Assembly: GCA_937967615.1 (NCBI GenBank)
Contig: CALCMJ010000149.1
Coordinates: 1-23,386, forward strand
Length of the DNA stretch: 23,386 nucleotides
Reading direction: 5' to 3'
Source of the DNA: an uncultured Saprospiraceae bacterium
Lineage (GTDB): Bacteria; Bacteroidota; Bacteroidia; Chitinophagales; Saprospiraceae
Of the stretch, positions 8,363-8,853 are shown in pieces (positions within the stretch are counted from its first letter, which is position 1; the number at the start of each line of letters is the position of its first letter). Below the pieces are notes generated by a model, which was not told where the DNA came from, ran no database searches, and saw only the letters and a list, made by a program, of their open reading frames with translations. The position numbers and the translations under genes are program-made.

Positions 8363-8435
8363 AGTACTGTAACTCAATGGCTAGAGTACCCGACTGTCTC
8401 TCGGAAGGTTGCGAGTTCGAATCTCGTCAGTACTG
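8363..8435 (+). tRNA. tRNA-Asp (anticodon GTC), atypical: A1-U72 acceptor AGTACTG/CAGTACT, U at position 37, A10.
   Basis: Manual cloverleaf. Perfect 7-bp acceptor and perfect 4-bp D stem (ACTC/GAGT). Anticodon stem CCCGA/TCGGA with loop CTGTCTC. 5-bp T stem with TTCGAAT loop. Discriminator G73 and C38 are consistent with Asp identity. No encoded CCA. Confidence 0.6.
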
Positions 8436-8515
8436 CAACAAAGGCATAGACCAATAAACGCAATGCCTTATTTACAAAGAGAGTTAACAAAAGTGTTAGT
8501 TCTAAAGGAATAAAA

Positions 8516-8588
8516 GCTCCGTTCGTATAACTGGTTAGTACACCTGACTTTCTATTAGGTAATATGGGTTCGAGACCCATGCGGAGTA
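8516..8588 (+). tRNA. tRNA-Glu (anticodon TTC), atypical: G1.U72 and U7.G66 wobble pairs in the acceptor, U at position 37.
   Basis: Manual fold. Acceptor GCTCCGT/GCGGAGT. D stem GTAT/GTAC with GG in the loop. Anticodon stem CCTGA/TTAGG with loop CTTTCTA. T arm ATGGG-TTCGAGA-CCCAT. Discriminator A. Confidence 0.5.
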
Positions 8589-8599
8589 CTTTTTAATAT

Positions 8600-8671
8600 T
8601 GTCTTGTAGTATAATTGGTAGCACACAAGGATTTGACTCTTGTAGTCTAGGTTCGAATCCTAGCGAGACAA
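8600..8671 (+). tRNA. tRNA-Gln (anticodon TTG) with a U1-A72 first pair, as in enterobacterial tRNA-Gln.
   Basis: Acceptor TGTCTTG/CGAGACA. D loop AATTGGTA. Anticodon stem CAAGG/TCTTG with loop ATTTGAC (U33, A37). T arm CTAGG-TTCGAAT-CCTAG. Confidence 0.7.
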
Positions 8672-8693
8672 CATGTACATACAATATATAAAT

Positions 8694-8774
8694 GCGGGGA
8701 TGGTGGAATGGTTTACACAGCGGTTTTAGAAACCGTACTCTTTTGAGTTGAGAGTTCGAATCTCTCTCCCCGTA
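8694..8774 (+). tRNA. tRNA-Leu (anticodon TAG), class II with a long variable arm.
   Basis: Acceptor GCGGGGA/TCCCCGT. Anticodon stem GCGGT/ACCGT with loop TTTAGAA. The 13-nt variable arm ACTCTTTTGAGTT forms its own hairpin. T arm GAGAG-TTCGAAT-CTCTC. Discriminator A73, the major Leu identity element. Confidence 0.7.
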
Positions 8775-8779
8775 CGAAT

Positions 8780-8853
8780 ACCCTACTAGCCCAACTGGAA
8801 GAGGCATGGGAATTAAAATCCCAAGAGTCTAGGTTCGAATCCTAGGTAGGGTA
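8780..8853 (+). tRNA. Class-I (short variable arm) tRNA with anticodon TAA. This is Leu by anticodon but not Leu-like in architecture. Isotype is undetermined and it may be a tRNA-like element.
   Basis: Perfect acceptor ACCCTAC/GTAGGGT. D stem GCC/GGC with GG in the loop. Perfect anticodon stem TGGGA/TCCCA with loop ATTAAAA (U33, anticodon UAA, A37). 5-nt variable loop. T arm CTAGG-TTCGAAT-CCTAG. It starts 5 nt after the preceding tRNA. Confidence 0.45.

Follow-up and report, generated by a model that had tools for sequence, protein, structure and literature searches.

A mobile tRNA array beside rtcB in Saprospiraceae, probably an accessory stress module gated by a candidate leader-peptide attenuator

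INTRODUCTION

The closest known system to the one described here is the cyanobacterial transfer RNA (tRNA) L-array, which is co-regulated with the RNA ligase gene rtcB. In Anabaena this array (the trn operon) is silent and is induced by translational stress together with rtcB (PMC8421152, PMC10272220), and in other cyanobacteria it adjoins rtcB (PMC8421152). The regulon of its regulator TrcR also includes rimK and a pair of genes for a hypothetical protein and a slipin (SPFH) (PMC10272220), and the authors of the cyanobacterial work noted L-arrays in Bacteroidetes (PMC8421152). Here we describe a five-tRNA array downstream of rtcB, at positions 8363-8853 of a 23,386-nucleotide (nt) stretch of DNA from an uncultured Saprospiraceae bacterium (GenBank assembly GCA_937967615.1, contig CALCMJ010000149.1, positions 1 to 23,386, forward strand). 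This whole stretch is called the window below.

For phage tRNA arrays, escape from anticodon nucleases of the host through anticodon-loop variants has been proposed (PMC10264068; also PMC11555353). Toxins that cut tRNA-Glu or tRNA-Asp include colicin E5, EndoU CdiA-CT STECO31 and CdiA-CT NC101. In Salmonella, expression of the rsr-yrlBA-rtcBA operon responds to damaged tRNA (PMC7790460, PMC4201824). The locus joins three questions: the purpose of RtcB in bacteria, the extra tRNA arrays of bacteria and phages, and the survival of tRNA-targeting toxins.

Our reading, which we think probable, is that the array tRNAs are functional, accessory and horizontally mobile, and belong to an attenuator-gated RNA-damage or translation-stress module of Bacteroidota. 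The firmest part of it is that the tRNAs belong to an accessory stress module, which we consider highly likely.

GENE ORDER AND DISTRIBUTION OF THE MODULE

The genes of the module, in window coordinates, are:

5238..6251, minus strand: WYL/WCX-domain transcription regulator, divergent from rtcB (Pfam WYL 8e-11, WCX 2e-13).
6340..7707, plus strand: RtcB 3'-phosphate/5'-OH RNA ligase (Pfam RtcB 2.5e-32).
8363..8435, plus strand: tRNA-Asp(GUC), loop CUGUCUC, U37, A1-U72, G73 (ARAGORN, Rfam RF00005).
8516..8588, plus strand: tRNA-Glu(UUC), loop CUUUCUA, U37, G1-U72, A73 (ARAGORN, Rfam RF00005).
8600..8671, plus strand: tRNA-Gln(UUG), U1-A72, A37 (ARAGORN, Rfam RF00005).
8694..8774, plus strand: tRNA-Leu(UAG), class II, A37, A73 (ARAGORN, Rfam RF00005).
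8780..8853, plus strand: fifth tRNA, UAA anticodon on a class-I body, loop AUUAAAA, A1-U72, A73 (ARAGORN, Rfam RF00005).
8987..9499, plus strand: TPR-like protein, 170 amino acids (aa), with a basic C-terminal tail; its homologs carry TPR Pfam families.
9526..9597, plus strand: tRNA-His(GUG) with encoded G-1 (ARAGORN, Rfam), kept 3' of the TPR gene in relatives.
10299..11399, plus strand: SPFH/Band-7 (slipin-like) protein, last gene of the module (Pfam Band_7 8e-28), syntenic in at least 12 loci.

After the divergent WYL gene and rtcB come a 37-codon open reading frame (ORF) with a terminator, 470 nt of non-coding sequence, the five tRNAs, the TPR ORF, tRNA-His, about 700 nt of non-coding sequence and the SPFH gene. 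An independent assembly of run ERR9287624 gave the identical sequence, so the arrangement is no assembly artefact.

ARAGORN and Rfam agree on the five array tRNAs, with gaps of 80, 11, 22 and 5 nt, where a first-pass annotation made from the sequence alone had placed them (ARAGORN ends: Asp 8363-8436, Glu 8516-8589, Gln 8600-8672, Leu(TAG) 8694-8775 and the 75-nt TAA tRNA 8780-8854). All five are full cloverleaves spanning RF00005 model positions 1-71, at 47.3-59.8 bits (gathering score 29; E 1e-7 to 1e-11). The series does not stop at 8853, as that annotation had it: tRNA-His makes six tRNAs in the window, and two permuted tRNA-like modules lie beyond, at 9839-9985. The 80-nt gap between Asp and Glu (8436-8515) is the place of a tRNA-Pro(UGG) in the related loci L010 (9465-9537) and L028, and only a T-arm remnant is left there in L009 (~2407). 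Array content therefore turns over, tRNA-Pro being present, a remnant or gone depending on the locus.

Reading 8-23 kb of sequence around each related array, we found the order WYL, RtcB, tRNA array, TPR protein, tRNA-His, tRNA-like RNA and SPFH to recur in about 20 Saprospiraceae and Flavobacteriaceae loci. In L009, L010 and L011 it reads WYL, RtcB, Asp-[Pro]-Glu-Gln-Leu(UAG)-[UAA tRNA], TPR, His-[Arg], tRNA-like elements, SPFH. The TPR ORF is found in the same module in these three loci, yet its homologs there are only 53-56% identical; the gene is syntenic also in L018 and L028, and stands immediately 5' of the array in L017, L020, L022, L024, L025 and L031. Related arrays hold 5-13 tRNAs, some divided into two clusters, and the module flanks differ from locus to locus.

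A search pattern derived from the anticodon and T arms of tRNA-Asp was matched by 10 of 185,579 species genomes (GTDB). The matches were Saprospiraceae metagenome-assembled genomes (MAGs), Flavobacteriaceae MAGs, the cultured Flavobacteriaceae strain Hp32 and an Aquimarina assembly. These loci have arrays of 4-12 tRNAs, except L019, where the contig ends after a lone tRNA-Asp, and in their neighbourhood one or more of WYL, RtcB, the TPR protein and SPFH. Eight further distinct loci, with the same gene associations, came from a scan of metagenomes. Such a sporadic distribution, over two Bacteroidota classes and with a lineage shared with phages, fits the horizontal transfer ascribed to L-arrays.

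The WYL gene is paired with rtcB in all relatives examined, including L002-L008, whose RtcB is 81-87% identical to that of the window; no tRNA was found within 10 kb in these seven. To the question, raised at first pass, of whether the array travels with rtcB and the WYL gene, the answer is thus twofold: it does so in many diverged loci and does not in these close relatives. Judged by these comparisons, the array is a patchily distributed, mobile accessory block repeatedly found with rtcB, because relatives with so similar an RtcB go without it and because the flanks differ. The link of an accessory tRNA set to RtcB and WYL, proposed at first pass, is borne out by the same recurrent synteny and the same absence. 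That these are ordinary housekeeping tRNAs with lineage quirks would agree with their good scores, and is nonetheless very improbable: they are missing at this locus in relatives with RtcB 81-87% identical, are confined to 10 GTDB species genomes scattered over two classes, diverge fast (76-97% identity between window tRNAs and those of loci with RtcB 86-87% identical), have a strong terminator directly in front, and include a pyrimidine at position 37, which is exceptional and almost unknown among cellular tRNAs (PMC5041475).

Like the L-array, this is a horizontally spread tRNA array linked to rtcB. It is presumably supernumerary and, to judge by its layout of promoter, leader ORF and terminator, may be silent until translation is impaired. 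The kinds of gene in the L-array regulon are clustered here: RtcB, the array, the TPR and SPFH proteins, and an ATP-grasp protein (13248-14294). The L-array has up to 43 genes, far above what accretion of genes would yield, whereas the arrays here are shorter (5-12 genes); its regulator is the ribbon-helix-helix protein TrcR, whereas a WYL protein adjoins rtcB here; and it is controlled by operator repeats, in place of which we find a leader ORF and a terminator. U37 in Asp and Glu, a short-armed Leu and permuted tRNA-like RNAs are not described for the L-array.

CONSERVED ANTICODON-LOOP AND ARM VARIANTS

Canonical elongator tRNAs have a purine at position 37. In the array Gln, Leu and the fifth tRNA have A37, and Asp and Glu have U37, within 7-nt loops taken from the Infernal alignments. 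The ARAGORN calls match the genes of the first-pass annotation and the Infernal folds keep the U37 that it had read. Asp has U37 in all 24 related copies listed, 14 of which were retrieved without fixing position 37. The Asp loop CUGUCU[C/A] was found in 4 of 4 loci reached through the TPR protein and in 10 of 10 metagenome matches for which positions 37 and 38 had been left free. The Glu loop CUUUCU[A/C], with U37, is present in 14 of 15 array copies. Anticodon stems vary in a compensated fashion, for example from CCUGA/UUAGG to UCUGA/UCAGA. Array tRNAs of other isotypes have a purine at 37, the sole exception being a dubious Lys call in L015 (CGUUUCA, C37). A second 'Asp' with A37 in L032 lacked Rfam support and was dropped.

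The fifth tRNA does combine a UAA anticodon with a 5-nt variable loop, as first reported and as the Infernal alignment shows. Measured against class II tRNA-Leu it has a generic D arm and a short variable loop, and A73 alone fits; the fourth tRNA (8694-8774) has the long variable arm, the Leu-type D arm and A73. The loop AUUAAAA of the class-I UAA tRNA is kept in the window, L009, L010, L028 and L030, with a compensated anticodon-stem change. The long variable arm of Leu(UAG) is lost in L011, L015, L017, L022, L023 and L027 (74-77 nt), and array Tyr and Ser tRNAs retain long arms where Leu(UAG) has lost its own.

Non-G 5' ends had also been listed as oddities. The pairs A1-U72 (Asp, fifth tRNA) and U1-A72 (Gln) are correct, but the latter is a usual feature of bacterial tRNA-Gln and no oddity.

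Because these loops are invariant while the stems covary, despite fast divergence of the tRNAs, the comparison indicates that U37, the short-armed Leu and the class-I UAA loop are traits under selection, not products of decay. Decaying, horizontally acquired pseudo-tRNAs, the alternative offered at first pass, would account for the AT-rich acceptor stems, for the loss of the L010 tRNA-Pro from the 80-nt gap with its T-arm remnant in L009, and for a C27-A43 mismatch in the window tRNA-Asp (Rfam alignment). Set against the invariant anticodon loops, the compensatory stem changes, the recurrence in about 20 loci and the conserved regulatory region, that alternative is hardly credible.

THE ARRAY CONTROL REGION

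An alignment of the spacer between rtcB and tRNA-Asp in seven loci brought out the following elements:

7964..7984, unstranded: near-invariant 21-mer CAATTGGGAGACAGACTATTG, presumed regulator site, kept from Saprospiraceae to Flavobacteriaceae.
8048..8062, unstranded: palindrome AATTGATAATCAATT, upstream of the array promoter, conserved in the spacer alignment (TTGATnATCAA).
8082..8113, plus strand: presumed Bacteroidota-type promoter, with a -33 box TTTG (8082-8085), a 20-nt spacer and a -7 box TACATTTG (8106-8113).
8142..8291, plus strand: leader ORF, 49 codons, MTFRNTHTNRLEALSLQRQLHVTPLEPGADLCIDQVLIIGNREYIFYMM, between promoter and hairpin.
8319..8353, plus strand: terminator/attenuator hairpin GCATCTCTCTG-GTTC-CAGAGAGATGC followed by T9, 9 nt before tRNA-Asp.

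The boxes (-33 TTTG, about 20 nt, -7 TAnnTTTG) and their spacing are kept in all loci, and we take them to be a promoter on the strength of the Bacteroidetes sigma-A consensus. The 21-mer stands 119-122 nt upstream of the -7 box in Saprospiraceae-type loci (13 fetched and the window), and three Flavobacteriaceae-type loci have variant forms of it; 3' of it lie a covarying hairpin and the TTGATnATCAA palindrome. Between promoter and hairpin runs a leader region of about 200 nt, variable in sequence. In 13 of 14 distinct loci it holds an ATG-initiated ORF of 36-66 codons whose stop falls 22-31 nt before the hairpin. Against shuffled sequence the length of this ORF has P = 0.001-0.08 per locus, and a Fisher combined value of 3e-11 that is optimistic since the loci are related.

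The attenuator hairpin has a folding energy of -18.3 kcal/mol and compensatory changes in all loci, and across loci the hairpin and T-run end 9-40 nt before the first tRNA. This space is too short for another promoter, so the tRNAs would depend on reading through the terminator. The T-run followed by G was considered as a -7 promoter box and rejected, since no -33 box goes with it and its spacing from the tRNA is not constant. The hairpin had first been described as an insulating terminator. Hairpin and T9 are real, but they insulate nothing: they are the sole element between the promoter with its leader ORF and the tRNAs, and are better read as a candidate attenuator. At gathering score Rfam found only tRNAs, and no known ribozyme, riboswitch or T-box in 7700-10300 at E values up to 5.

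As in the trpL, hisL, leuL and pheL attenuators (PMC3082878), a promoter, a short ORF, here apparently enriched in matching codons, and an intrinsic terminator precede the genes, and in 13 of the 14 loci the short ORF lies between promoter and a terminator directly before the genes presumed to be regulated. Classic attenuators regulate amino-acid biosynthesis genes and their leaders hold a run of one codon type; here the genes are tRNAs, the leader draws on several isotypes, the ORF is longer (36-66 codons) and an antiterminator helix is not demonstrable. A full-text literature search returned no report of leader-peptide control of a tRNA operon.

LEADER PEPTIDE COMPOSITION

Amino acids of the isotypes encoded in the leader's own array occupy 212 of 520 leader positions (40.8%) against 156 expected (z = 5.5), a count that 0 of 3000 nucleotide shuffles reach; the share is 28.6% in shuffles and 25-26% in the other two reading frames. 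Leaders before arrays that start with Lys-Ser-Cys-Tyr have more K/S/C/Y (p = 1e-4) and less D/E/Q/L/H (0.007) than Saprospiraceae-type leaders, a contrast confounded by GC content.

L011 (GCA_020628095.1, JAHDFP010000014.1), which offers the cleanest comparison because both leaders belong to one genome, has a second cluster 3' of its SPFH gene, of Phe, Lys, Asn, Gly, Arg-TCG, Met, Arg-TCT and Val tRNAs. Ahead of this cluster lie a 22-codon ORF of its own, MRVRNMIRKNRKVVFITDYAKA, and a terminator, the latter 15 nt from tRNA-Phe (11872-12001); the stop is 75 nt from the first tRNA, and the geometry is that of the first leader. The second peptide begins M-RVRNMIRKNRKVVF, the first 14 codons past its start spell R V R N M I R K N R K V V F, and 14 of its 21 residues belong to isotypes of that cluster (p = 0.003), of which it is nearly an inventory. 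In L011 the first leader is rich in D/E/Q/L/H (two-leader Fisher contrast p = 7e-4).

On balance we think that a leader-ORF gate on the array is rather probable, with several observations weighing against it. The L016 locus is without a leader ORF and no leader was found for the second cluster of L015. Relative to the proteome, the residues in excess in the leaders are Arg (2.9x), Gln (2.2x), His (2.1x) and Cys (1.9x), with Asp, Glu and Leu at background; the Arg enrichment does not follow the arrays that carry Arg tRNAs, and the leaders are without codon runs. Antiterminator candidates of -6 to -11 kcal/mol occur in every locus (RNAduplex), yet with z from +0.4 to -3.2 against shuffles this pairing of the hairpin 5' arm with the 3' part of the ORF is no better than shuffles in most loci, and its positions vary.

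THE WYL REGULATOR AND ITS CANDIDATE OPERATOR

6287..6307, unstranded: candidate WYL operator, a palindrome CTACGCA-N7-TGCGTAG in the promoter region between the divergent WYL and rtcB genes.
9629..9649, unstranded: second copy, TTACGCA-N7-TGCGTAG, with one mismatch, conserved in alignment.

Two copies of the palindrome in the window compare with 0.01 expected by chance. In nearly all loci (13), arrayless relatives among them, the WYL-rtcB spacer contains the form TACGCA-N7-TGCGTA, and the second copy lies 3' of tRNA-His in the window, L010, L016 and L018. That second copy, first noted as a flank of the array, is real; it stands 775 nt past the fifth tRNA, beyond the TPR gene and tRNA-His, and what it precedes is the conserved non-coding region described next, not the array.

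A PERMUTED tRNA-LIKE RNA BEFORE THE SPFH GENE

9775..10262, plus strand: structured RNA of about 480 nt, both modules and a 3' domain of about 250 nt (RNAalifold).
9839..9908, plus strand: permuted tRNA-like module 1, with closing stem GACAGA/UCUGUC, T arm, closed 7-bp acceptor hairpin and D arm.
9916..9985, plus strand: permuted tRNA-like module 2, with T arm, closed acceptor hairpin, D arm and full anticodon arm (loop CUCUUAA).

Two tandem modules are present in all nine loci that cover the region (18 modules; for example L009 3767-3930, L010 10942-11121, L011 10025-10190 and L022 3097-3290, minus strand), with an acceptor hairpin of 7 bp and a loop of 2-12 nt. The acceptor strands differ in 17 of 18, each pairing with its own partner: of 126 acceptor cells 119 are paired, compared with 72 +/- 6 when partners are exchanged, a count biased upward by selection for at least 6 of 7 pairs. 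The module 2 'anticodon' varies by locus (CUU, GUU, UCC, AAG, CAU and others). The hairpin loop of strain Hp32 carries an encoded ACCA past the 3' strand, which is also seen in two-piece transfer-messenger RNA genes.

The modules have the T arm, closed acceptor stem and D arm of the YrlA tRNA-like domain. The Rfam YrlA model (RF02553, gathering score 69) scores 41.7 and 27.6 bits in the window, over model positions 23-85, and 28-47 bits on the modules overall, with 46.6 bits the best in any locus. Tandem tRNAs are known to produce artefacts in YrlA searches (PMC4201824). This origin is ruled out here, as is tRNA debris at 9830-10000, where Rfam makes a partial tRNA call at 9944-10001: the two strands of the acceptor form pairs together, with covariation, in nine loci.

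Over five loci RNAalifold gives 109 pairs for 9775-10262, 45 of them with compensatory changes. The RNA closes with a long terminal stem and a T-run 35 nt before the SPFH start, and an invariant single-stranded GCTGGATACCGT lies at 10095-10107. Structure prediction suggests that it could be a large non-coding RNA or a structured leader of the SPFH gene.

As in the Salmonella operon (PMC7790460, PMC4201824), RtcB stands beside tRNA mimics made of T arm, closed acceptor and D arm. That operon has Ro60/Rsr, RtcA and RtcR (CARF, sigma-54), none of which is found here, where the regulator is a WYL protein. Genes for bacterial Y RNAs are expected within about 4 kb of a Ro60/Rsr (TROVE) gene; neither the window nor the lists of genes for L009-L011 contain a TROVE domain. 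Unlike Salmonella YrlA, the modules form a tandem pair inside an RNA of about 480 nt, and the locus contains real tRNA genes.

These RNAs raise the possibility that the U37 Asp and Glu, the short-armed Leu and the permuted modules are decoys or signalling RNAs, which would be produced under stress to soak up tRNA-targeting toxins, or would feed RtcB and WYL with fragments or ligands, and have little role in translation. The free variation of the module 2 'anticodon' fits a mimic, a WYL operator precedes the tRNA-like RNA, and a sponge has been suggested for the Anabaena array (PMC8421152). Yet the array tRNAs keep full cloverleaves, the exact anticodon for each isotype, their discriminator bases and the G-1 of His, and an isotype-matching leader makes sense only if decoding capacity is sensed and restored; in Anabaena 23 of 26 tRNAs of the array are aminoacylated in vivo. 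Pyrimidine-37 is, for its part, expected to weaken decoding, and A37 is an identity element for glutamyl-tRNA synthetase in Escherichia coli, both of which would suit decoys. Overall we regard decoys as unlikely.

CONNECTION WITH PHAGES

The array shares with phage arrays its tight packing, AT-rich tRNAs with non-G starts, anticodon-loop isodecoder variants and the Asp-U37 lineage. It is unlike them in being chromosomal, without phage genes, of benefit presumably to the cell, and equipped with its own sensor-like leader and repair ligase. Position 37 is not discussed in the phage-array work (PMC10264068).

This tRNA-Asp lineage, D arm and U37 included, is present in Salicola phage SCTP-2 (MF360958.1; L034 2998-3075), a 440-kb jumbo phage, and in a viral contig with 16 tRNAs (IMG/VR UViG_3300020577_009037; L035 9181-9331), where an A37 Asp stands directly beside it. 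A blastn search of INPHARED with 8300-10050 gave short matches to single tRNAs only, one of which led to the SCTP-2 tRNA. Scans of viral sequences yielded 0 matches each to the class-I UAA tRNA, to the Glu lineage, to the strict Asp-U37 pattern and to the same Asp D arm combined with A37; a relaxed Asp-U37 pattern gave one.

These findings bear on a phage origin, in which the tRNAs would be island cargo that supplements codons or does nothing and the RtcB link would reflect a shared integration hotspot. The Asp-U37 lineage in two phage tRNA arrays, the patchy distribution and the match of the window RtcB, over its full length, to phage family phrog_1075 (4e-94) are in its favour. However, no phage structural, integrase or lysis genes were found in the window or related loci, viral sequences yielded no match to the fifth tRNA, to the Glu lineage or to Asp under the strict pattern, and module order and regulatory elements are kept across two bacterial classes while the flanks differ; we consider this origin improbable.

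PROPOSED MECHANISM

We return to the reading of the array as part of an attenuator-gated stress module, which would have three units: the WYL-controlled rtcB; the tRNA array with the TPR protein and tRNA-His; and the RNA preceded by the WYL operator, with its two permuted tRNA-like domains, followed by the SPFH protein. The array would be transcribed from its own promoter only by reading through the terminator 9 nt before tRNA-Asp, and the leader ORF, rich in codons of its own isotypes, would most likely act as a leader-peptide attenuator. We infer the direction of switching by likeness to the trp, his and phe attenuators: when decoders become limiting, with tRNAs cleaved or depleted and ribosomes slowed, stalling in the leader would make termination fail, and replacement tRNAs would be expressed and presumably aminoacylated. 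RtcB would meanwhile reseal broken RNAs.

U37 in the decoders of GAN codons (shared U35-C36-U37) and the short arm of Leu would most likely make these tRNAs poor substrates for an anticodon-loop nuclease or modifier whose targets are the housekeeping copies. Nuclease escape through U37 is a tentative suggestion. No anticodon-nuclease gene was found in the module, and the identity role of A37 for E. coli glutamyl-tRNA synthetase means that U37 might impair charging and not protect; both points tell against it.

Rather more doubtful is the fuller idea of a self-limiting tRNA back-up circuit, in which leaders list the isotypes of their cluster, loss of decoders calls up attacker-proof U37 and truncated-arm isodecoders, and RtcB and the tRNA-like RNA serve for repair or as decoy. 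If true, it would be the first leader-peptide attenuation of tRNA genes, and a cellular counterpart of the anti-nuclease tRNAs of phages. The locus offers a conserved, compact and testable system: a sensor-like, tRNA-mirroring leader, an invariant and near-forbidden U37, a short-armed Leu, Ro60-free tRNA mimics, and a WYL regulator with a defined operator. One or more carriers are cultured (Flavobacteriaceae Hp32), making experiments feasible.

OTHER FEATURES

7720..7833, plus strand: small ORF, 37 aa, directly 3' of rtcB and ending at the rtcB terminator (weak evidence).
7862..7893, plus strand: rtcB intrinsic terminator, its stem covarying across seven loci.

A tblastn search with the small ORF found nothing at 1e-4; in L009 and L010 the alignment, read by eye, shows ORFs of comparable length that contain an EQLxxxER motif. 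A conserved TAACTTTG, similar to a -7 box, overlaps the stop codon of rtcB.

RtcB has more than 7000 homologs, the nearest of them from Saprospiraceae MAGs. Window proteins with type IX secretion system (T9SS) sorting domains assign the contig to Bacteroidota. In a PADLOC 2.0 search for defence systems only the generic WYL models matched, to the WYL regulator, and RtcB, the TPR protein and SPFH had no matches. PHROGs, NCBIfam and PADLOC returned nothing for the module proteins past RtcB, WYL and generic SPFH/TPR, and the window TPR-like protein has no Pfam match.

In the Flavobacteriaceae-type loci L024, L025, L031, L017 and L020 the TPR gene ends 16-17 nt before tRNA-Tyr, with its stop codon in the loop of a 10-bp hairpin, CCAGCCAAGA...TCTTGGCTGG. 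This layout suggests a different, translation-coupled link between TPR gene and tRNAs.

The ATP-grasp ORF (13248-14294) is RimK-like by a weak Pfam match and is found 2 kb past the end of the module; this synteny is not shared by the other loci and may be a coincidence. Strain Hp32 has an extra ORF of about 160 aa between array and permuted modules (L022 3953-4435, minus strand), with a YkuK/DUF458 RNase-H-like look by eye.

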